NCBI GenBank assembly: GCA_001767955.1
Contig: MEMO01000017.1
Span: 22,090 to 86,089, forward strand
Source of the DNA: Alphaproteobacteria bacterium RIFCSPLOWO2_01_FULL_40_26
GTDB lineage: Bacteria > Pseudomonadota > Alphaproteobacteria > Rickettsiales > UBA1997
Direction of reading: 5' to 3'
DNA length: 64,000 bases
In this document: positions 4,791-55,830 of the stretch, one piece after another
How the letters are laid out: each line of letters begins with the position of its first letter
How positions within the stretch are numbered: the stretch's first letter is position 1
The notes under the pieces: model-generated
Databases searched by the model: none
Told to the model about the DNA's origin: nothing
Seen by the model: only the letters and a program-made list of their open reading frames with translations
Made by a program: the position numbers and the translations under genes

Positions 4791-5630
4791 ATGTTTTTTC
4801 AACAAATTATCTTCACCCTTCAAAATTTTTGGGCAGCGCAAGGCTGTGCAATTCTGCAACCAATTGATATTGAAGTTGGCGCCGGCACTTTACATCCAGC
4901 CACAGTTTTGCATGCCTTGGGAAGTAAGCCGTGGAAAGTGGCTTATGTTCAACCTTCGCGCCGACCAACTGACGCACGCTATGCACAAAATCCCAATCGC
5001 CTTTCGCATTATTACCAATTCCAGGTTTTGCTAAAACCAGCACCGAAAAACATCAAAGATCTCTATCTGCAAAGCCTCGATCTGATTGGTTTAAACACCA
5101 AAGAAAATGATGTTCGTTTTGTTGAAGATGATTGGGAAAATCCGTCGGTTGGCGCATCGGGCTTGGGATGGGAAGTGTGGTTTAACGGCATGGAAATCAC
5201 GCAATTCACCTATATGCAACAAGTTGGCGGTATTGAATGCGATTTGATTGCCGGCGAAATCACCTATGGTTTGGAGCGCATCGCCATGCATATCCAAAAT
5301 GTCAATTCAGTTTTCGACATCAAGTGGAACGAGGAATTTACCTACGCCGACATTTTCAAACAGGCCGAAATTGAAAATTCCTCCTTCATTCTTGAGCATT
5401 CAAATCTTGAAATTCTTTTTAGAAATTTTGCCGAAAGCGTTGCGCAATCGCGACTTTTATCAGAAAAAAAATTACCAATTCCAGCTTATGAACAAGCGCT
5501 TAAAGCCAGTCATTTTCTAAATCTACTTGATGCCAGAAGCGCAATTTCGGTTAACGAAAGAGCTTCCTACATCGCACAAATTCGCACTTTGGTAAAGGCA
5601 GCTTGCGAATTAATAAATAATCAATCTTGA
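4791..5630 (+). CDS. glyQ: glycine--tRNA ligase alpha subunit
   Basis: 279 aa. The N-terminus ([33 protein letters not shown]) matches the GlyQ pattern. Confidence 0.96.
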
Positions 5631-10639: not shown

Positions 10640-11615
10640 TTTCTCCGCACAGGAATTTGAAAAAATTTTTGATGAAATTCTCAATGGCAAAGTTGATGAG
10701 GATTCAGTCAAAAAATTTTTGCTTGATCTCAATTGTGCCAATCTTCCGCAAAATTCTTTTATCGGCGCTGTGTCTGCCCTCAAAAAAAGAATGAAAAAAA
10801 TTGCTGCGCCCGAAGGAGCAATTGATGTTTGTGGCACCGGTGGTGATAAATTAAACACCCTGAATATCTCAACTGCCGTTTGTTTTGTAGTTGCTGCAGC
10901 CGGAGTTTGTGTGGCTAAACATGGTAATAAGGCAATATCATCAAAGTCAGGATCGGCCGATATTTTTGCCGAATTGGGAATAAAAATTTCTTCTGATATT
11001 TCTGAAATTGAAAAAAACCTGCGTGAAAAAAATCTTTGCTTTCTCTTTGCCCCCTTCTTTCACGAATCACTAAAAAATCTCGCTGCAATCCGCAAATCCC
11101 TTGGCATTCCAACAATTTTTAATTTCCTCGGCCCACTCTTAAATCCAGCAAATACAACCCGCCAACTCATCGGAGTTTCACGCCATGATGTAATGCGCAA
11201 AATGGCCAAAACCCTTACCACTTATCACTTAACGCTTATCACTTCTTCTTACCTTGTTCATGGCTTTGACGGGATGGATGAAATAACGCTTACTACGAAT
11301 TCTTACCTTTTGCGCCTTGAAAACGGCAAAATTTTTGATGAGGAAATTATCAATCCCGAAAAATTTGGTTTTAAGAAAATTGCACTTGAAGCCTTAAAAG
11401 GAGCGGATCCGAAATATAATGCACAAAAACTTATTGCTCTTCTTGAAGGAGAAAAATCAGCCTATCGCGATATTGTGGTTTTAAACTCTGCTTTTGCTTT
11501 GAAACTGGCAGGAAAAGTTAGGGAAATTGGCGAAGGAATTGAGCTGGCGAATTTGATAATTAACAAAGGAGCGGCATTAAAAACTTTGAAAAATTTGACT
11601 CAGAACCTGTCCTAA
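10623..11615 (+). CDS. trpD: anthranilate phosphoribosyltransferase
   Basis: 330 aa with DVCGTGGDKLNTLNIST, KHGNKAISSKSGSADI and HGFDGMDE motifs. The last 4 codons and the stop are supplied by the repeat at 11601. Confidence 0.93.
   Translation: MENLNNFSAQEFEKIFDEILNGKVDEDSVKKFLLDLNCANLPQNSFIGAVSALKKRMKKIAAPEGAIDVCGTGGDKLNTLNISTAVCFVVAAAGVCVAKHGNKAISSKSGSADIFAELGIKISSDISEIEKNLREKNLCFLFAPFFHESLKNLAAIRKSLGIPTIFNFLGPLLNPANTTRQLIGVSRHDVMRKMAKTLTTYHLTLITSSYLVHGFDGMDEITLTTNSYLLRLENGKIFDEEIINPEKFGFKKIALEALKGADPKYNAQKLIALLEGEKSAYRDIVVLNSAFALKLAGKVREIGEGIELANLIINKGAALKTLKNLTQNLS
11215..11249. repeat. degenerate TTACCAC-type heptamer run inside trpD
   Basis: ttaccac ttatcac ttaacgc ttatcac ttcttct is read as LTTYHLTLITSS, the same peptide type as the murF array. 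Confidence 0.45.
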
Positions 11616-15194: not shown

Positions 15195-15944
15195 TTAGAA
15201 CTTTTTGTATTGATGCACACCTTGCAACACGATGTTGAAGGTGCAAAGCTTGATTGATTGTGGATTAAGAATATCGGAATGGTGCACTGATGCGGTGAGT
15301 AGTTTTTGCTCCTCGTGGCTGTAGGCGAGATATTGGTAATCGCTTTTGTTAAATGGATGATTTTCAAAATACATTTCGGTTTCAAGCTTGCCGAATTTTG
15401 GATGGTAGATATTCATATTGATGTGCGGAGAGCGTCCTGCCGTGCCTCCAGGCATTATGGTGATGAAGTGATAATTGCCGATATTGTCAGAAATGGCACG
15501 TCCGGACATGCTAAAAAATCTGTCGATATATTCGCTATTTGGTTCAAGCAAAGTGTGATATTTTCCCGCGGCATTGGTTTGCCAAATTTCAACTACTGCG
15601 TTTTGAATCGGCACACCGAAAGAGTCGGTGATCGTTCCCTGAACAAAAATCACTTCACCAAAAGCGCGATAAAATGAACCGGTTTTTTTGGCTAAATTGT
15701 TGGTGGTGGCAAAAACATCCGGCATTGACAAATCAGCAGCAAAAAAGCGTGAAGGAGTTGGAGTTTGCGGCGAAAAAAGCGATGGCGCTTCTTTGGAATA
15801 AGTGTTCATCGCCTTACCTTGAATGTCAGTAAATTCAGGCAAAGCGATGGGTTTGGTTTCTTCGTTACTGTAGATTTCCTTTGGAGTTTCGTCAGCCAAA
15901 AGAGGTAAAGAAATGAATAAAAAAACCAGCAATTTGTAAATCAT
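15195..15944 (-). CDS. secreted intradiol ring-cleavage dioxygenase family protein (protocatechuate dioxygenase beta-like)
   Basis: Start is at the internal Met giving the signal peptide MIYKLLVFLFISLPLLA. VEIWQTNAAGKYH ... GRSPHINMNIY is typical of intradiol dioxygenases. The ORF-track N-terminal extension to 16079 is read-through of the heptamer repeat. Confidence 0.7.
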   Translation of the reverse strand: MIYKLLVFLFISLPLLADETPKEIYSNEETKPIALPEFTDIQGKAMNTYSKEAPSLFSPQTPTPSRFFAADLSMPDVFATTNNLAKKTGSFYRAFGEVIFVQGTITDSFGVPIQNAVVEIWQTNAAGKYHTLLEPNSEYIDRFFSMSGRAISDNIGNYHFITIMPGGTAGRSPHINMNIYHPKFGKLETEMYFENHPFNKSDYQYLAYSHEEQKLLTASVHHSDILNPQSIKLCTFNIVLQGVHQYKKF

Positions 15945-15949
15945 AAATC

Positions 15950-16049
15950 GTGTCTTTATTCGTGCATCGTGCATCGCGCATCGTGCTTCGGTAGTTTTAA
16001 ACCACGAAGCACGAAGCACGAAACACGAAGCACGAAATACGCCAGACAT
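15950..16049. repeat. heptamer-array palindrome (TTCGTGC family)
   Basis: gtgtct..(cgtgcat cgtgcat cgcgcat cgtgctt cg) - gtagttttaaacca - (cgaagca cgaagca cgaaaca cgaagca cgaaata cg)..agacat. Confidence 0.9.
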
Positions 16050-16075
16050 AAATTTGCATAACAAATCGTAAACCC

Positions 16076-16642
16076 TCATACCTTTGGTAACGTCACCCCT
16101 CTTTGCCCCATATACTTCCCTGCCCTCATGTCATAGGAAATCTCACACGGTTTGTCACCCTTGAAAAACAGAAACTGGCAAACACCCTCAAAAGCATAAA
16201 TTTTTGCCGGCAATGGAGTTGTGTTGGAAAATTCCAGAGTCACATGTCCTTCCCAGCCAGGTTCCAATGGGGTTACGTTAACGATAATACCGCAACGCGC
16301 ATAAGTTGATTTGCCGACACACACAACCAAAACATCTTTGGGAATTCGAAAATATTCTACCGTGCGCGCTAGAGCAAAGCTATTTGGCGGAATAATGCAA
16401 ACATCGGTTGTGCGATTAACAAAGCTGGTTTCACAAAAATTTTTTGGATCAACAATTGCCGAATCAATGTTGGTAAAAATTTTAAATTCATTCGCAACGC
16501 GCGCATCGTAGCCATAAGATGAATTGCCGTAGGAAATGATTTTATTGCCATTACTATCAACTCTAATCTGTTCTTCAGCAAATGGTTCGATCATGCCTTG
16601 TTTTGCAAGTGCAGCGATTGATTTGTCGGAAAGGACTGTCAT
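16076..16642 (-). CDS. dcd: dCTP deaminase
   Basis: 188 aa with SSYGYDARV and a typical Dcd length and profile. Confidence 0.9.
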
Positions 16643-16647
16643 TTCTA

Positions 16648-16719
16648 TTTACGATTTACGATTTACGATTTACGAGTTGCAATTTCTTAAATCGTAAATC
16701 GTAAATCGTAAATCGTAAA
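16648..16719. repeat. heptamer-array palindrome (TTTACGA family)
   Basis: tttacga x4 (16648-16675), a 16-nt spacer gttgcaatttcttaaa, then tcgtaaa x4 (16692-16719). Confidence 0.92.
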
Positions 16720-16740
16720 TTGGTTGTTAAGTAAAATTCT

Positions 16741-16850
16741 GTGTCTGGAATATTTCGTGCTTCGTGCATCGTGCTTCGATAATTTTAATCCACGTAGCAC
16801 GGAGCACGGAGCACGGAGCACGAAAAAGACACAAAATTTTAAGAACAATC
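16741..16850. repeat. heptamer-array palindrome (TTCGTGC family) with a 22-nt tail
   Basis: gtgtct..ttcgtgc ttcgtgc atcgtgc ttcg - ataattttaatcca - cgtagca cggagca cggagca cggagca cgaaa..agacac. The tail acacaaaattttaagaacaatc (16829-16850) is identical to 38947-38968. Confidence 0.9.
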
Positions 16851-16862
16851 CGTAAATTATTC

Positions 16863-18617
16863 ATGCACGACATTTCCTACTTACACGACATCCTAATCCT
16901 TCTATTTGCCTCCGTCGCCATTGTCATTATCTTCAAACAAATGGGTTTGAGTCCGGCACTTGGTTATCTCGTGGCTGGCGCGGCAATTGGTCCTTTCGGA
17001 TTCGGCGTTTTAACCAGCACTGAAACCACAAAATCTCTTGCCGAGCTTGGGATAGTTTTTTTGCTCTTTGCTATCGGACTTGAGCTTACCATCGACAAAC
17101 TACTTGCTATGCGCAAATATGTTTTGGGATTTGGCGGTATGCAAATCATCACAACCGCTTCGTTTATTTCCTTCATCTGTTATCGTTTCATCCATCTTTC
17201 CGCCGAAACTTCGATAATAATCGGCAGCGCGCTTGCAATGTCTTCAACGGCAATCGTCATGCAGGTGATTTCTGAACATGGCGAGCAATCAACGCGCGTC
17301 GGACGTTTGGCCTTTTCAGTGTTACTGATGCAGGATCTGGCAGTAATTCCGATTTTTGTTCTTCTGCCTCTTCTTTCAAAAGTTCATCTCAATATCGCAA
17401 GCGCACTTGGCGGGGCATTGCTTAATGCCGCGATAGCAATGGCAATAATTTTTGCCATTGGACGCTTGCTGCTACGCCCACTCTACCGCATGATTGCTGA
17501 ATCACAAAGCGATGTCCTGTTTTTAAGCTTCACTTTAATCGTCGTTCTCGGCGCGGCTTTTTTTAGCGATTATTTTGGATTATCCTATGCGCTTGGCGCT
17601 TTCATCGCCGGCCTAATGGTTGCTGAAACCGAATATAAATACCGCGTTGAAGATGAAATTCTCTCGCTGAAATCTCTATTTTTGGGACTGTTTTTTATGA
17701 CAATTGGCATGTCGTTTGATTTCGATTTGCTGCTTAAAAGCCTGCCATACATCATTTTGGCTTCACTGGCGCTGATCGCGACCAAATCCTCAATCATCAT
17801 CATTTTGTGTCGGATTTTCCGCTTTCCTTTGGCGCCGGCAATTCACACTGGATTACTGCTTTCACAAGGTGGCGAATTTGCCTTTGTGGTATTTTTGATG
17901 GCAGTGCATCAAAAGCTGATTCCACTCGATCTATCACAATTTCTGATGACCGTCACAACTTTCACCATGGCGCTCACACCTTTGCTTGCAACATTGGGAC
18001 GTAAGCTCAAAGCACAACTCTACACCAAAGAAATTTTGCGCGATAACAAGCTGAAAAGAGAAATCGGCGATATTGAAAAACATATCATCGTAATCGGATT
18101 TTCTAAAACTGGCCGCATCGTCTCACACATTTTACGCAAACGCGGAATTAGCTACATCGTGCTCGAAAATAATCACCGCATCGTGCGCATCGAAAAAAAT
18201 AACGGCTATAACATCTATTATGGCGATTCCATGAATATCGACATTCTGCGCTATATCGGCATTGAGCGCTGCGAATCGGTGGTAGTTGCAATGGAAGATG
18301 AAATCGCCTGCATGAAAATCACTCGCTTCATCCATGAAAATTTTCCGCATATCGCGGTGATCACCAAATCGGAAACTATCAACAATGCCGACCGTTTCAA
18401 AAAAGTTGGCGCCAGCTATGTGGTTTCCAAAAATCTCGAAACCGGCCTGCAATTAAGCCATGCTGCTCTGGCTTCAATTGGCACTAGCAGCTTGGAAATC
18501 AACAACGCTTTAAACGCTTTTCGAGAAATTAATTCAGAGGTAGTAAAGGATATTGTGATGTTTGATGAAAATGCTGGCAGCGGAGAAATTTTTGAAAAGA
18601 AAGAAAGACCAAGTTGA
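16863..18617 (+). CDS. CPA2-family monovalent cation:proton antiporter with a C-terminal RCK/TrkA-N domain (KefB/KefC-like)
   Basis: Start is at the internal Met (MHDISYLHDILILLF..). About 12 TM segments are followed by VIGFSKTGRIVSHILRKRG, a Rossmann-like RCK domain. The upstream ORF extension is repeat read-through. Confidence 0.88.
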   Translation: MHDISYLHDILILLFASVAIVIIFKQMGLSPALGYLVAGAAIGPFGFGVLTSTETTKSLAELGIVFLLFAIGLELTIDKLLAMRKYVLGFGGMQIITTASFISFICYRFIHLSAETSIIIGSALAMSSTAIVMQVISEHGEQSTRVGRLAFSVLLMQDLAVIPIFVLLPLLSKVHLNIASALGGALLNAAIAMAIIFAIGRLLLRPLYRMIAESQSDVLFLSFTLIVVLGAAFFSDYFGLSYALGAFIAGLMVAETEYKYRVEDEILSLKSLFLGLFFMTIGMSFDFDLLLKSLPYIILASLALIATKSSIIIILCRIFRFPLAPAIHTGLLLSQGGEFAFVVFLMAVHQKLIPLDLSQFLMTVTTFTMALTPLLATLGRKLKAQLYTKEILRDNKLKREIGDIEKHIIVIGFSKTGRIVSHILRKRGISYIVLENNHRIVRIEKNNGYNIYYGDSMNIDILRYIGIERCESVVVAMEDEIACMKITRFIHENFPHIAVITKSETINNADRFKKVGASYVVSKNLETGLQLSHAALASIGTSSLEINNALNAFREINSEVVKDIVMFDENAGSGEIFEKKERPS

Positions 18618-19300: not shown

Positions 19301-19466
19301 CTAGAGCCTGTTTTCAAACCCAGCGCGTTTCGATTTTGCCCAAATTTTGTGCGACTTTTTGGCAAAATTTTGCCGCTGTATCTGGCATACTGCAAAAAAT
19401 TTTGCCAAAAAACGAGCCAAAATTTGGGCAAAATCGAAACGCGCTGGGTTTGAAAACAGGCTCTAG
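19301..19466. mobile_element. A-family MITE-like palindromic element, 166 bp
   Basis: Termini are ctagagcctgttttcaaacccagcgcgtttcgattttgcccaaatttt and its inverted complement ending ..caggctctag. The core gcgactttttggcaaaattttgccgctgtatc is the reverse complement of the core in 13480-13712. Confidence 0.88.
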
Positions 19467-20538
19467 TTAGTCCATCCTGAAATACCTCCTAACCCCACAT
19501 TCCACTTGCCTCCACAAGACTTTTTAACTATCTTTTTTTACCAGAAATCGAGTGGTCGCCCCTCATTTTCTGGCAAATAAATTCAGTAAAAATTAACAGA
19601 AATTCATGCAGCCGACTAAAATCGATAATCGTCAGGAAGATATTTTTAGGGGAAGATTGAGCAACGAGCTCAACCCCAAACATGAGATGATGATTTTATC
19701 CCGCCTGATTCCGTGGGATAGTTTGGAGTCTGAATTTTCTGATCTTTACCAATCGAATGGAAGTGTCGGCGGTCAGCCTCCAAAGCCAATCCGCTTGATG
19801 ATTGGAATTCTTTTGTTGCAACATCTGCACAATCTTTCTGATGAACAAGTTGTGTGTGGCTGGGTAGAAAATCCTTACTGGCAATTCTTCTGTGGCTACG
19901 ACTTTCTGCAATGGAACTTCCCAATTGACCCATCTTCTCTCACTCGCTTCAGAAATAGGATTGGAGCCAATCGCATGGAAAAAATCCTTTCCCTAACTGT
20001 TTCTGTAGCCGTTGAATCAAAAGCAGTAAAAGTGAAAGATTTAAAAAAGGTGAATGTCGACACCACCGTGATGCCAAAGAACATCAAGTTCCCCACCGAC
20101 TCAAAGCTTTACGACAAAGCTCGAAAAAGATTGGTCAAGCTTGCCTCCAAATACGAAATTGAACTCAGACAAAACTACAACCTCGTCGCCAAAACTCTTC
20201 TGCGTAAAATCTCAGGATATCTTCACGCTAAACAAATGAAGCGCACAAGGAAGGCGATCAAGCATTTGAGGACTATTGTTGGAAGAGTGGAAGCAAGAAG
20301 GGAAGCTGGGCCTCTGTAGGCTTAAAGGGATTATTGGTGATCAGATCAATGCCATCCTAACCGCAGCAGGACACAATCTCCAGCTGATCCTAAATCACAT
20401 CAGGAAGTTGCTGAAACTTGGAAAACTAAAGAATTTTTTAATCCAAATTTTACTTCGACTGCTGGAGATTTTTCTGCCAAAAACTTATCGGTTTGGGAAT
20501 TGTTGAGAGTGGGAAGTGGGTTCTTCAGGGGGGACTAA
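19467..20538 (+). mobile_element. decayed IS5-superfamily insertion sequence (internally deleted)
   Basis: Imperfect terminal inverted repeats are ttagtccatcctgaa (19467-19481) and ttcaggggggactaa (20524-20538), matching 13 of 15. It encloses the transposase fragments. A second right-end-like fragment lies at 20588-20606. Confidence 0.7.
19606..20506 (+). pseudogene. IS5-family transposase, disrupted with most of the DDE domain missing
   Basis: ORF 19606..20319 carries the N-terminal transposase domain (PPKPIRLMIGILLLQHLHNLSDEQ, NPYWQFFCG). ORF 20276..20506, in another frame, carries only the extreme C-terminal motif (GDQINAILTAAGHNLQLIL). Confidence 0.7.
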
Positions 20539-36086: not shown

Positions 36087-37403
36087 ATGTCAACAATTTT
36101 TGCTTTAATCACTTCACCATTTCGTGCCGGAATTTCTGTGATCCGCATTTCCGGAGATGAAACATTGCAATGTCTAAAAAACCTTGGATTTAAAGGCGCG
36201 CTACAACATCAAAAAATTTCATTTCAAAAAATCTTTGATCCAAAAACTGCTGAAAAAATCGATGAAGTTTTGGTTTCATTTTTCAAAGCACCACAAAGTT
36301 TTACCGGCGAAGATGTTGCTGAAATCTCAATTCATGCCTCACCCTTTATCCTAAAAAAAATTCTCGAAATTTTATCGACGCAAAAAAACTGTCGCCTCGC
36401 CGAAGCGGGAGAATTTTCCAAACGCGCTTTTTTAAACGGAAAACTTGATCTCGTTCAAGCTGAAGCAATTCCAGACTTAATCGCGGCAGAAACTGAATTA
36501 CAACATCGCCAGGCCTTGATGCAGCTTGAAGGAAAGCTTGGTAAAATTTATGAAAACTGGCGTTTACGCCTGATTGAAATTTCAGCTTTTATTGCAGCAG
36601 CAATTGATTTTCCAGACGAAGATTTGCCAGAAAATATCATCACTTCAGTTGAAGAAAATGTTCAAAATTTGCGCAATGAAATTAAGAAACATCTAGATGA
36701 CAAAAAATCCGGACAAAAAATTAAAGATGGTTTAAGCCTTGCCATTATTGGCGCACCAAATGTTGGCAAATCTTCGCTGATAAATTTTCTTGCACAAAGT
36801 GAAGTGGCAATTGTTTCAGAAATTCCAGGAACAACGCGCGATGTGGTTGAGGTGCATCTGTCAATTGCCGGCATGCCGGTAAAAATTTCTGACACTGCGG
36901 GATTACGCGAAACTTCTGATCCAATCGAAAAAGAAGGAATCGCCCGCGCCTTACAAAAAGCCAGATTAGCCGATATAAAAATCTTCATGTTTGATGCCGT
37001 AAATCCGGTTTTGCGCGAGGATTTGATTGATGAAAATACGTTGCTGGTGGTCAATAAAATTGATCTTGGCGGAAGTAAATTATCAATGATCAATCATCAA
37101 TTATCAGCTATTGAGCTTTCTCTTACTGATAGGATTAATACCTCAACATTGCTTGAAAAACTCGAAGAAAAAGTTTTGGAACTCGCGCCAAAACAGAATT
37201 CGCCGCTGATTACACAGGAGCGTTATCGCACTGCTTTACAAAATTCTGTGGAAAATTTGGAACATTTTTCACTTACAAAAAACATCGAACTTGCCGCCGA
37301 AGATTTGCGGTTGGCCACAAATGAAATTGGAAAAATCATCGGCAAGGTTGATATTGAAAATATTTTGGACATTGTCTTTTCACGCTTTTGTATAGGAAAA
37401 TAA
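36087..37403 (+). CDS. mnmE: tRNA modification GTPase MnmE
   Basis: 438 aa with the G1 motif GAPNVGKSS, DTAGLR and the C-terminal CIGK. Confidence 0.95.
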   Translation: MSTIFALITSPFRAGISVIRISGDETLQCLKNLGFKGALQHQKISFQKIFDPKTAEKIDEVLVSFFKAPQSFTGEDVAEISIHASPFILKKILEILSTQKNCRLAEAGEFSKRAFLNGKLDLVQAEAIPDLIAAETELQHRQALMQLEGKLGKIYENWRLRLIEISAFIAAAIDFPDEDLPENIITSVEENVQNLRNEIKKHLDDKKSGQKIKDGLSLAIIGAPNVGKSSLINFLAQSEVAIVSEIPGTTRDVVEVHLSIAGMPVKISDTAGLRETSDPIEKEGIARALQKARLADIKIFMFDAVNPVLREDLIDENTLLVVNKIDLGGSKLSMINHQLSAIELSLTDRINTSTLLEKLEEKVLELAPKQNSPLITQERYRTALQNSVENLEHFSLTKNIELAAEDLRLATNEIGKIIGKVDIENILDIVFSRFCIGK

Positions 37404-53452: not shown

Positions 53453-54433
53453 ATGACAAAAAAAATAATCGGCATCGGCAATGCCATCGTTGATATTTTA
53501 TGCAAAGTCCAAGATGGATTTTTGCATGAACATAGTCTGATCAAAAATTCAATGTCTTTGATCGACGACGATACGGCAAACAAATTATCGCTGCTAAAAC
53601 CGGAAAAAATAACTTGCGGCGGATCGGTTAGTAATGCCATTGCAACCTTGGGGCAATTGGGCTGCAAAACCAGCTTTATTGGCAAAGTTGGATCTGACAA
53701 TTTTGGCACAAAATTTATCAGCGAATTGGAAAAAACCGGCACTCAATTCATCGGCGAAAGTGCTTATGGTCGTACTTCGGCAAAATCTTTCGTTATGATA
53801 ACACCGGATGCACACCGCACCATGTGCACTTTTCTTGGCTGCGCTTCCGAAATAAACGAAAATGATATCGACGACAAAAATTTCAAAGATGCCCATTATC
53901 TCTATTTGGAAGGCTATTTGTGGGATCGTGAAGAAACTATTTCCGGCCTTAAGAAAGCCATAAATCTGGCAAAAAAAGATGGATTAAAAATTGCTTTCTC
54001 TCTTTCTGATTCCTTTTGTGTCGCACGTCATAAAAAAGATTTTCTTAATCTGGTAATCAACGATCTCGATATAGTTTTTGCCAATGAACATGAAGCTTTG
54101 GAGCTTATTTCCCGCCCTGATTTTTCCGTTGAAATTTTAGGAAAAACTTTTGCAAAAAACCCAAATCTAACCGCAATTGTCACCAGAAGCGAAAAAGGCT
54201 GTATGATTTTCGACAGTGGAAATCTGTTTGAAGTTGCAGCAAAACCGGTTGAAAAAATGGTTGATACCACCGGAGCTGGCGATGCCTTTGCCGCTGGGTT
54301 TTTCTACGGTTTAGTCAATGATTTCGATCTGGAAAAATGCGGCTATTTCGGCAATCTTCTCGCCGCACAAATCATCCAAAAATTTGGCGCACGCTTTGAG
54401 AAAGAAGAAACTTTAAAACTCAAACTCGTATGA
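53453..54433 (+). CDS. PfkB-family carbohydrate/adenosine kinase
   Basis: Starts IIGIGNAIVDIL and has DTTGAGDAFAAGF. 53438 is an alternative start. Confidence 0.85.
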   Translation: MTKKIIGIGNAIVDILCKVQDGFLHEHSLIKNSMSLIDDDTANKLSLLKPEKITCGGSVSNAIATLGQLGCKTSFIGKVGSDNFGTKFISELEKTGTQFIGESAYGRTSAKSFVMITPDAHRTMCTFLGCASEINENDIDDKNFKDAHYLYLEGYLWDREETISGLKKAINLAKKDGLKIAFSLSDSFCVARHKKDFLNLVINDLDIVFANEHEALELISRPDFSVEILGKTFAKNPNLTAIVTRSEKGCMIFDSGNLFEVAAKPVEKMVDTTGAGDAFAAGFFYGLVNDFDLEKCGYFGNLLAAQIIQKFGARFEKEETLKLKLV

Positions 54434-55830
54434 ATCTTTGGAATAAAGAAGAGCTCATTGCGGCCTTGGGAGATGAGCTTCTACAAAATAATCTACCAGA
54501 AAATCTTGTAATTGACGAAGTTGTAATAGACGGACGAAAAGCCACAAAAAACGGCCTCTTCATCGCCATCAAAGGCGAAAAAAACGACGGCCATGATTTT
54601 CTCAACCAAGCCACAGAAAATGGCTGCACTACCGCAATCATCGATAAACTTACCACTTACCACTTACCACTTACCACTATTCTCGTAAAAAACACCTTCA
54701 CCGCCCTCTACAAACTCGCCGAATTTTCCCGCAAAAGAAGCAAAGCCAAAATCATCGCCATTACCGGATCAGTTGGAAAAACCGGAACAAAAGAAATGCT
54801 AAAACTGGTTTTTGAAAGTCAGGGAAAAACTTTTGCCACGGCAGGAAATCTTAACAATCATATCGGCCTCCCGCTTTGTTTGTGTAATTTCGCACGCGAT
54901 TCTGATTTTGGAATTTTTGAGATGGGAATGAATCATGCGGGAGAAATCGAACCTCTATCAAAACTTGTAAAACCACATCTTGCTTTGATTACCAACGTTG
55001 GCCCAGTTCACATCGAATTTTTCAAAAATGAGGAAGAAATCGCCAAAGCAAAAGCAGAAATTTTTTCCGGCCTTGTTGATGGCGGAATTTGCCTGATAAA
55101 CGCAGATAATAAGCATTTCGAACTCTTAAAAAAACTGGCAAAGAATTATGTTTCTTTCGGAGAAAAAAAACCTTGCGATTACCAAATCATCAAATCTGAA
55201 ACCAGCAGCGCAAACAATTCAGTGGTTGAAGCCAAGCTGAAAAACGGAAACAAAATCTACTACGAAATCGCCACTTCACAACCGGCAACAATCTTTAATT
55301 CAATCATAACCGTTGCCTGTCTTGACCTACTCGGAAATGATTTCGCCAAAGGAATATCATCGATGAAAAATCTCAAAACTGCAAATGGCAGAGGTAATGT
55401 TATCGAAACAAATAACCTCACCATCATTGATGACAGCTACAACGCCAGCGTGCTTTCCATGCGTGCCGGACTCGAACATGCAGCAAACCTGAAAAAAATC
55501 CTCGGCAAAAAAAGAGTGGTTGCTGCGCTCGGCGATATGCTTGAACTTGGTGAAAAATCCGTTGAATTGCATGAAGAAATTGCCGATTATCTGCTTCAAT
55601 TTCATATCGATTTTGCCGTTTTGGTTGGAAACAACATGACGCAAATCAGCAAAAATCTTCCCACAAATTCCTACAAAACTTTTTCTGATTCACAAACAGC
55701 AAGCCTTGAAATTGAAAGCCTCCTGCAAGACGGAGACATTCTCTATGTCAAGGGTTCTAGAGGAATGAAGATGGAAAAGTTGGTGGAAAAGTTGATTAAA
55801 AATCTAACTAATCAAAAAGGTGCTCACTGA
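54430..55830 (+). CDS. murF: UDP-N-acetylmuramoyl-tripeptide--D-alanyl-D-alanine ligase
   Basis: 466 aa with the ITGSVGKTGTKEM P-loop and a Mur ligase layout. Confidence 0.93.
   Translation: MNLWNKEELIAALGDELLQNNLPENLVIDEVVIDGRKATKNGLFIAIKGEKNDGHDFLNQATENGCTTAIIDKLTTYHLPLTTILVKNTFTALYKLAEFSRKRSKAKIIAITGSVGKTGTKEMLKLVFESQGKTFATAGNLNNHIGLPLCLCNFARDSDFGIFEMGMNHAGEIEPLSKLVKPHLALITNVGPVHIEFFKNEEEIAKAKAEIFSGLVDGGICLINADNKHFELLKKLAKNYVSFGEKKPCDYQIIKSETSSANNSVVEAKLKNGNKIYYEIATSQPATIFNSIITVACLDLLGNDFAKGISSMKNLKTANGRGNVIETNNLTIIDDSYNASVLSMRAGLEHAANLKKILGKKRVVAALGDMLELGEKSVELHEEIADYLLQFHIDFAVLVGNNMTQISKNLPTNSYKTFSDSQTASLEIESLLQDGDILYVKGSRGMKMEKLVEKLIKNLTNQKGAH
54650..54677. repeat. TTACCAC x4 heptamer array inside murF
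   Basis: Four perfect ttaccac units are read as (K)LTTYHLPLTT. Confidence 0.9.

Follow-up and report, generated by a model that had tools for sequence, protein, structure and literature searches.

Around the dcd gene of an uncultured alphaproteobacterium three DNA elements lie close together, each made of tandem heptamers that face inverted heptamers across a short spacer. The stretch analysed, here called the window, comprises 64,000 nt of contig MEMO01000017.1 of Alphaproteobacteria bacterium RIFCSPLOWO2_01_FULL_40_26; the DNA comes from the Rifle groundwater metagenome, and relatives of its source are labelled Rickettsiales. The locus raises the question of what these elements are, and whether they and similar arrays elsewhere in the window form one repeat family with an interchangeable heptamer, as the original prediction from the sequence alone supposed. 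We consider it likely that the region holds two different repeat types which share a 7-nt tandem periodicity, namely a MITE (miniature inverted-repeat transposable element) and separate AT-rich heptamer microsatellites.

Period-7 arrays were located with Tandem Repeats Finder (TRF) and by direct reading of the sequence. On the minus strand dxr, rbfA, a dioxygenase-like gene and dcd stand in this order, and kefB comes next, on the plus strand. The first element (E1) is situated between the end of dcd and the start of the dioxygenase gene, and the third (E3) between the second (E2) and the kefB ATG. TRF reported the following arrays:

15960–15990, TCGTGCA ×4.4, with its partner at 16003–16041, CACGAAG ×4.9: the arms of E1
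16647–16675, ATTTACG ×4.1 (perfect), with its partner at 16688–16720, TAAATCG ×4.7 (perfect): the arms of E2
16754–16778, TTCGTGC ×3.6, with its partner at 16791–16822, CACGGAG ×4.6: the arms of E3
38353–38385, CATTTAG ×4.7: single array
38891–38922, TTCGTGC ×4.6: further array
49567–49599, TTCGTGC ×4.7: further array
51690–51745: further array, short
54648–54678, ACTTACC ×4.4: further array

A strict scan of the window for periods 4–12 returned eight arrays of period 7 and none of periods 4–6 or 8–12. In a permissive scan, where the threshold for a lag was 21 or more matches out of 28, 11 scan windows were found at lag 7, none at lags 4–6 and 8–11, and three at lag 12. The string TTCGTGCTTCGTGC, with up to two mismatches, occurs 19 times in the window against 0.48 expected. 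Every array named in the original prediction was present; its list had passed over a degenerate array at 11209–11250, another at 37076–37110 and a decayed pair at 50453–50514. The ends of E1 and E3 needed correction, since both elements reach further, to terminal inverted repeats (TIRs), at about 15934–16067 and exactly at 16722–16850. For comparison we used metagenome loci (L numbers) from the same groundwater community and from related species, two of which (L121 and L122) are identical in sequence to the window.

The TTCGTGC-type mobile element

E1 and E3, together with fragments at 38889 and 49564, are copies of a non-autonomous mobile element, a previously undescribed MITE family; a literature search with the repeat strings returned only unrelated human primer sequences. 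The features concerned, including the target-site duplications (TSDs) of E3, are these:

about 15934–16067, no strand: E1, an older MITE copy between the dcd stop (16076) and the dioxygenase-like start (15944)
16722–16850, no strand: E3, a complete 129-bp MITE (nhmmer match 16720–16853, E 2e-39)
16714–16721, no strand: left TSD of E3, CGTAAATT, equal to the final E2 unit plus T
16851–16858, no strand: right TSD of E3, CGTAAATT, 4 nt before the kefB ATG (16863)
38889–38968, plus strand: MITE half copy between the coaD stop and the Elm1-like start (38972) (nhmmer match 38889–38937, E 2.4e-15)
49564–49631, minus strand: MITE fragment in a kinase gene (nhmmer E 6.5e-15)
51688–51745, plus strand: two short ACGAAGC runs in direct orientation in polA, of doubtful MITE membership (nhmmer E 0.015, marginal)

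In the alignment of copies from the community the element is about 130 bp long, with full copies of 116–144 bp, and reads from end to end TIR GGTTGTTAAGCAAAATTTTGTGTC, an asymmetric bulge GGAATAT, (TTCGTGC)4, TTCG, the loop GTAATTTTAATCCA, CGAA, (GCACGAA)4–5, AAA and TIR GACACAAAATTTTAAGAACAATC. The TIRs are 24 nt long, conserved among copies and mutually inverted, and the arms are two runs of four to five NTCGTGC heptamers. The conserved 14-nt loop is found turned either way with respect to the ends; the A/T-rich spacers that had been quoted as a general feature of the design are this loop, and belong to the MITE family alone. No open reading frame (ORF) is carried by the element itself, and some copies are read through by host ORFs. 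E3 displays the arrangement complete, with left TIR GGTTGTTAAGTAAAATTCTGTGTC followed by the bulge GGAATAT, loop GATAATTTTAATCCA and right TIR GACACAAAATTTTAAGAACAATC; a TIR search gave it as one match with two mismatches where none was expected.

A metagenome scan with the loop pattern yielded 35 stretches, 25 of them distinct, and about 19 share ends, arms and loop amid unrelated flanks. A profile was then made from 12 full copies, and nhmmer found 41 distinct copies or fragments with it over about 280 kb of community loci, four of them in the window. The modal layout, 4+4 exact cores, is seen in 15 of the 41 matches, and half copies turn up often. The same 18-nt flank stands at 16833 and at 38951; the possibility that this 3' flank, common to E3 and the array at 38891, is a native kefB leader was rejected, as the family alignment shows it to be the right TIR.

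Perfect 8-bp TSDs flank E3 (CGTAAATT) and the copies in L137 (CTATCTCA), L139 (TTGATAAA) and at L125:9621 (AGTGAATG), seven of eight positions agree in L132 and L136, and one further copy has about 6/7. The chance probability of an 8/8 duplication is 1.5e-5 per copy. A derivation of the arrays as transposon footprints was rejected because the duplication is 8 bp long and the repeat unit 7.

Three relatives, with 72–75% amino acid identity in the neighbouring protein, keep the synteny and have neither E1 nor E3 at the corresponding places. In them dcd meets or overlaps the dioxygenase gene, 2–4 nt apart, the dcd–kefB spacers measure 83–125 nt, and no period-7 arrays were found in them within 10–20 kb; a search of two further relatives (L159 and L160) with the MITE profile gave no match. 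When E3 and one copy of its TSD are taken out of the window, the dcd–kefB spacer becomes 83 nt, compared with 83–84 nt in relatives. Among the roles offered in the original prediction, that of a non-autonomous mobile element was the right one for E1, E3 and the 38889 and 49564 fragments, by their TIRs, 8-bp TSDs and dispersed copies; the orthologous loci of five diverged relatives do not contain the elements.

Insertion of the MITE produces the 8-bp target-site duplication, and because the element encodes nothing, a transposase supplied in trans would have to move it. E3 landed in the final unit of an already present E2; the site before insertion would read ...TCGTAAATCGTAAATT joined straight to ATTCATGCACG, with one CGTAAATT. 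E3 and the copies at L142:4080 and L125:2570, three of about 13 full MITE copies, adjoin TCGTAAA/TTTACGA-like sequence, which is beyond chance by a rough estimate (about 1e-3) and suggests a target preference for, or some other link with, the AT-rich arrays. In L146 and L150 two pairs of TIR-like sequences, with about 1 kb between the partners, were considered as an autonomous element and rejected as false positives inside nuoL.

E1 was matched by nhmmer with E-values of 1.6e-31 and 1.4e-27 and was also aligned with 20 other copies. Its inner TIR, on the dcd side, is a good match (reverse complement GATTTGTTATGCAAATTTATGTCTGG), and its loop, GGTAGTTTTAAACCA, occupies about 15991–16002. On the minus strand an ORF at 15195–16079 runs from an ATG overlapping the dcd stop, across all of E1 (45 codons, in frame), and into the dioxygenase-like gene. 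Public assemblies call that gene as 249 or 294 aa on the same DNA, a conflict which arises because the open frame crosses E1.

The two fragments are reduced in different ways. The 38889 copy keeps the left arm (TTCGTGC ×4.6), the loop GGTAATTTTAAACCA and the right TIR TACACAAAATTTTAAGAACAATC, an exact 18-nt match to that of E3, and has lost the right arm and the left TIR; deletions account for half copies of this type. In relatives coaD and elm1 overlap (L160) or are separated by an unrelated 93-nt spacer (L159). The 49564 fragment retains the loop between 1.5 units from one arm and 4.7 from the other, and lies in frame in an APH/AmgK-like kinase gene (48720–49775, minus strand), where it codes for an extra loop of about 23–25 aa (FCAISYFDNLSQRSTKHEARSTNK...). 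PDB 3csv can be aligned to either side of this segment, where 26 residues of the query face 3, and kinase orthologues of 63–69% identity are about 321 aa long and without the segment. Fragments of this kind can persist in frame within genes.

One kinase orthologue (P0267, 63% identity) carries a separate insertion of 41 aa precisely where the window kinase has its MITE loop, and to judge from these sequences the loop appears to tolerate insertions. An in-frame MITE insertion in polA at 51688–51745 was considered as well; it was rejected on the E-value of 0.015 and on a linker of the same length in the closest PolA relatives.

The length of MITE arms ranges from about 1 to 5.6 units. Variant heptamers recur within an arm (ATCGTGC three times, GCACGGA three times in E3 and GCACGAG three times), which indicates turnover in a 7-nt register. 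At one locus found in two assemblies, L148 has five units and L149 four, the sole polymorphic case. After insertion the arms would change by 7-nt steps, variants would spread within an arm, and the two arms would drift independently. It had been argued that a copy number fixed near four speaks against slippage; this reasoning does not hold, as the 4+4 of the MITE is handed down from a master copy, and slippage acts, as seen in L148/L149, in the spread from about 1 to 5.6 units and in the homogenisation of arms.

AT-rich arrays at gene starts and in murF

E2 has no TIR, no MITE loop and no match to the nhmmer profile; it is a separate repeat type and not a MITE copy. It is listed here with the other arrays of the window that stand apart from the MITE:

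16647–16720, no strand: E2, a palindromic heptamer microsatellite, (TTTACGA)4.1, a 12–16-nt spacer and (TCGTAAA)4.7 (100% matches in TRF), of the TTTAnnA class
38353–38394, plus strand: AT-rich single array, not a MITE, with units ATTTAGC ×3, ATTTAAC, ATTTCTC and ATTTTC, of the TTTAnnA class
50453–50514, no strand: decayed ATTTAGR/YCTAAAT pair in the divergent GST–polA spacer, with intact orthologous pairs in L159 and L160
54648–54678, plus strand: murF array, not a MITE, ACTTACC ×4.4, coding for the peptide LTTYHLPLTT in a MurF surface loop
11209–11250, plus strand: degenerate CTTACCA-type period-7 array inside a coding region, with the same unit as the murF array

E2 sits 4–5 nt from the dcd ATG (16642, minus strand) and, before E3, was 6 nt from the kefB ATG. 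The reconstructed 83-nt spacer before the arrival of E3, all of it taken up by E2, reads CAT-GAATAA-(TTTACGA)4-TTTAAGAAATTGCAAC-(TCGTAAA)4-TAGAA-ATG; the dcd–kefB spacer of the relatives looks unrelated to E2 in sequence, though of the same length. A second TTTACGA pair, with another spacer, is found at L151:2533–2599 and ends 1 nt before an ATG. That its left arm abuts a divergent start codon was also considered and dropped, since the ORF list does not support it. ATTTAGG arrays, single and paired, occur at L129.

The 38353 array fills the 43-nt spacer (38352–38394) of the divergent starts of rlmH (38351, minus strand) and coaD (38395, plus strand). It gave no match to the MITE profile and has no predicted secondary structure (−1.3 kcal/mol, z +0.7). 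Since this spacer is only 43 nt long and nearly all array, both promoters should lie in the array or in the neighbouring genes.

Seven of the nine intergenic AT-rich arrays in the clade fit the form TTTAnnA, in which positions 5 and 6 are free, so that the heptamer is not freely interchangeable. TTTAnnA arrays stand singly or as inverted pairs beside start codons in the clade, and the polA–GST arrays persist at the orthologous site in more than one species, with unit variants. There the predicted fold of the pair is −7.2 kcal/mol in the window (z −1.1), −26.5 in L159 (z −6.9) and −19.9 in L160 (z −4.7). The original prediction was correct that the design recurs with different heptamers, which include TTCGTGC, TTTACGA, ATTTAGG, AGAATTA (in the clade) and ATTGCGG (at a planctomycete locus). 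A single family with an interchangeable heptamer is not supported, as E2 and the 38353 and murF arrays are without profile match, MITE ends or MITE loop.

Further arrays were seen in related species. At L158:5350–5459 an inverted pair, (AGAATTA)4.9, about 45 nt and (TAATTCT)4.3, extends from the last murF codons to the contig end, at a place where murF and mraY overlap in the window. At L159:3719–3757, (AGTCGTA)5.6 lies beside the start of the IGPD gene. A long palindromic ATTTAAC/AAATGTT pair stands upstream of tatC at L159:12379–12499 (−45 kcal/mol, z −7.5), and the tatC ATG falls within its last unit.

The murF array gave no match to the MITE profile, and it was rejected as an insertion, the loops of relatives being equal or longer and one of them having the same array. 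The MurF loop in the window is only 2 aa longer than that of E. coli MurF, and L158, with 73% MurF identity, has ACTTACG ACTTACC ACTTACC ACTTACG at the same place (L158:4171–4197). In other MurF relatives 7-residue periodic peptides (LRLTTYNLRL, QTTNNQRPTT and LTTHDSQPTT) were observed there. Sequence comparison points to a long-lived coding heptamer array, and the peptides suggest, at the protein level, that its heptamer unit differs between species.

By analogy with published repeats, we take the AT-rich arrays to be heptanucleotide microsatellites of the kind that is over-represented in prokaryotes. They would be kept by 7-nt slippage, and would be either tolerated or used as 5' regulatory sequence; a putative regulatory role, or tolerance in such a position, is probable. 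An in-place microsatellite origin for E2 and the other AT-rich arrays is viable, and forms part of the best explanation.

The best-surviving rival, which we nonetheless regard as unlikely, gives these arrays (E2, 38353 and those of relatives) a more specific function as binding-site arrays for a protein that binds DNA or RNA, for example a global regulator, a nucleoid protein, S1 or a cold-shock protein, with each arm serving one divergent gene. The common TTTAnnA form with its two free positions would suit a recognition sequence, the arrays abut start codons, and two species have kept the polA–GST pair, which in a third has decayed; similar proposals have been made for the Geobacter heptamer sites (PMC2700814) and the TAACTGA arrays (PMC4679880). 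However, no candidate protein was identified, the contexts vary (divergent, co-directional and at 3' ends of genes), and in the window the polA–GST copy has decayed while both genes are retained.

Distinctly improbable is a second proposal, that (TTTAnnA)n arrays of at least four units are self-phased sigma-70-type promoters, bidirectional when paired, which 7-nt slippage creates, tunes and destroys. The starts of the −35 and −10 hexamers are 23 nt apart, which is 3×7+2, so that each register would offer TTTAnn as −35 and TAnnAT as −10, and the span needed, 29 nt, equals 4.14 units against an observed minimum of 4.1. The free TTTAnnA positions coincide with the least conserved positions of both promoter hexamers. 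Moreover, E2 has replaced another, conserved spacer sequence of the relatives, and the dcd promoter should therefore now lie in or near E2; both single arrays, too, point at a gene (38353 at coaD, and L129:5204 at an ORF at 5266). Yet only 8 of the 12 consensus positions agree, at a cut-off of 9/12 neither E2 nor 38353 yields a site, and promoter and terminator consensus scans of 15800–17000 and 38200–39100 found no site in the arrays. The kefB-facing arm of E2 ends TACGAG and is without the −7 T, palindromic pairs meet any orientation rule trivially, and GC-rich heptamer arrays, here or in other phyla, are not covered. If this proposal were true, heptamer slippage would offer a general way for promoters to arise de novo, and the hairpin element would be a separate passenger, bearing a heptamer array by coincidence.

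Other features of the window may be recorded at this point. At 19302–19465 there is a near-perfect palindromic element of about 165 bp (CTAGAGCCTGTTTTCAAACCCAGCGCG ... CGCGCTGGGTTTGAAAACAGGCTCTAG), just upstream of a truncated IS5-like (DUF772) transposase ORF (19606–20319); ends like those of this element adjoin heptamer-MITE copies in L134, L150 and L152, and it is probably a second MITE family. A palindromic repeat of about 250 bp at 53203–53461, between the polA stop and the pfkB start, has copies of 75–99.6% identity on both strands in L131, L141, L148 (two) and L150, and is probably a third. A strong compositional skew (AT skew 0.38, GC skew +0.11) was noted at 44001–46000, inside a 2051-aa TrbL-domain ORF (39956–46111).

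Folding, slippage and the case against two repeat types

The predicted folds of E1–E3, scored against dinucleotide shuffles, are very stable, with z-scores of −7 to −12. E1 reaches −57.1 kcal/mol on the minus strand (z −9.0) and −47.1 on the plus strand, E2 −39.9 and −38.6 kcal/mol (z −10.5 and −12.0), and E3 −48.5 kcal/mol on the plus strand and −40.9 on the minus strand. Such stability invites the reading that the hairpins are structured RNAs selected for their fold, as mRNA stabilisers, processing sites, attenuators or a small RNA. In E1 and E3, moreover, mismatches are tolerated as G–U pairs on the sense strand of the neighbouring genes, where the fold is better by 8–10 kcal/mol, and E1 lies within a probable dcd–dioxygenase transcript. 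The strand asymmetry comes from two cases only, however, and compensatory covariation between the arms of the MITE was looked for and not found, an arm forming 27.1 of 30 Watson–Crick pairs with its own partner and 27.3 with the arms of other copies. With gathering and E-value thresholds of Rfam, only a tRNA reaches its gathering score in the window, and the elements appear as sub-threshold microRNA-precursor look-alikes; no terminator-like site (a G+C-rich hairpin with a U tract) was found in 15800–17000. With respect to the ends the loop faces either way, and copies lie inside coding regions. As there is neither covariation nor an Rfam match nor a U tract, a selected RNA structure, which the original prediction had listed among its candidates, is not supported, and we give this reading little credence. 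The hairpins of E1 and E3 could still affect the mRNAs that carry them.

It has also to be asked whether all the elements are independent microsatellites, arisen by in-place slippage and with palindromes symmetrised by template switching, so that no mobile element is involved. Period 7 is the only period found, one locus shows a length polymorphism of a single heptamer, variants are homogenised within arms, and heptamer arrays behave alike in many phyla. A scan for (TTCGTGC)3, which has little bearing on the MITE family itself, gave more than 109 loci in many phyla, the source genome not being among those listed; near the matches listed there are at least 64 other period-7 arrays, against 1–8 for the other periods that gave any, and inverted heptamer pairs with other units also occur among the loci listed. 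In four of these loci, L036 (Haloferula sargassicola), L023, L033 and L016, arrays of differing but related heptamers cluster within a few kb; L036 has 11 arrays in 8 kb, and in L033 three arrays, GTGCTCC, GTGCAAA and GTGCTTC, abut. Nevertheless E1, E3, the 38889 and 49564 fragments and some 40 other copies share 24-nt ends, the bulge and the 14-nt loop, which lie beyond what slippage can produce, and perfect 8-bp duplications flank the element. For the TTCGTGC family the shared ends and TSDs already refute this reading, and as an account of all the elements it is highly improbable.

That the elements are REPINs, REP doublets moved by a RAYT (Y1 HUH) transposase, is scarcely credible: they resemble REPINs as high-copy long hairpins of two inverted halves with a spacer (PMC3116915), but REPs and REPINs moved by Y1 enzymes leave no TSD and need no TIRs, both of which are present here, and the annotated parts of the window (14–57 kb) have no IS200/RAYT (Y1) gene.

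Several observations weigh against the division into a MITE and separate AT-rich microsatellites. On the side of the MITE, four of about 13 full-length copies are without a recognisable TSD, and the outer end of E1, towards the dioxygenase gene, is degenerate, so that its boundary is uncertain and its candidate TSD matches at 6/8. The DNA stretches examined yielded neither an autonomous element nor a transposase with matching ends. The relatives without E1 and E3 are 25–35% diverged in protein, too far for an exact single-copy empty site to be visible, and eight contigs from several samples have identical E1–E3, with one base difference in about 490; the strains are near-clonal and give no information on polymorphism. 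On the side of the microsatellites, slippage does not explain why period 7 is the only one or why non-mobile arrays have four to five units, nor does it explain why E2 has exactly the ancestral spacer length or how the murF array turns over by 7 nt without frameshifts.

Significance and comparison with known systems

The finding resolves into an undescribed MITE with a heptamer-microsatellite stem and heptamer microsatellites of an already known kind. For annotation, E1 and E3 are to be read as insertions and not as host regulatory sequence, and about 23–25 aa of the kinase, its extra loop, as derived from the element. For the study of mobile DNA, a MITE family built on a heptamer microsatellite is added from a Rickettsiales-like alphaproteobacterium of groundwater that is uncultured; it shows that heptamer arrays can be spread by mobile elements, and a like structure may be looked for in the inverted pairs of heptamers described from other organisms. 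The clade also offers tractable material on the prokaryote heptamer excess, with period 7 only, four to five units and persistence at orthologous sites (polA–GST and the MurF loop), and the TTTAnnA form makes the promoter-phase hypothesis directly testable.

Bacterial MITEs are exemplified by the Correia/NEMIS elements of Neisseria. Palindromic mobile repeats that lie in frame in protein genes, the Rickettsia palindromic elements (RPEs), were reportedly described by Ogata et al. in 2000. The MITE of the window resembles RPEs in being palindromic and in occurring in frame within a gene of a Rickettsiales-like alphaproteobacterium, a likeness of behaviour with one in-frame case, the kinase; RPEs, in contrast, are not known to consist of heptamers or to show a clear TIR/TSD structure. 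Closer in structure, a MITE of Porphyromonas gingivalis contains a minisatellite (PMC4596501). Like bacterial MITEs, the family described here is short and non-coding, has TIRs and a TSD, is dispersed in copies near gene starts, and includes an internal tandem repeat that varies in copy number. It differs from them in that this internal repeat is a 7-nt microsatellite, which forms both arms of a hairpin of about 70 nt.

For the arrays in general, the original statement that no family of such design had been described overlooked precedents in Xanthomonas (PMC4692102) and Geobacter metallireducens (PMC2700814), as well as the general heptamer excess of prokaryotes (PMC4679880). According to Mrazek, Guo & Shah (2007), as cited in PMC4679880 and PMC4692102, the long simple-sequence repeats of prokaryotes are most commonly heptamers. 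As summarised there, those repeats share with ours an exclusive excess at 7 nt, a mostly intergenic position and a distribution over many phyla; these summaries have the arrays ascribed to polymerase slippage and mention no link with mobile elements, unlike the present account.

Among the Xanthomonas GGGAATC repeats (Rehm et al. 2015, PMC4692102) four is the modal number of units, and 70–75 convergent inverted pairs are able to make stem-loops. They resemble the arrays of the window in the four-unit mode, in the inverted pairs and in a repeat type that is kept between species while its length varies, whereas they are G-rich and quadruplex-forming, belong to one dominant unit family and have no TIR or TSD reported (PMC4692102). 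In Geobacter metallireducens (Aklujkar et al. 2009, PMC2700814) elements made of four heptanucleotides in tandem are present in 49 copies, within and between genes, and there are paired sites of five heptamers. The likeness extends to four or five heptamers in and between genes, to pairs on opposite strands with variable spacing and to several units per genome; the Geobacter elements differ in being GC-rich and in being read as regulator-binding sites or regulatory RNA, mobility not being examined there (PMC2700814).

Finally, the TAACTGA repeats of Beggiatoaceae and cyanobacteria (MacGregor 2015, PMC4679880) consist of two to six heptamers placed a few nt upstream of start codons; canonical ribosome-binding sites are scarce in the genomes concerned. 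In contrast to E2 they are almost always direct repeats (one indirect case in 170 sets) and have a single unit sequence (PMC4679880). In their position at start codons they are matched by E2, the 38353 array and the arrays at L151 and L129.

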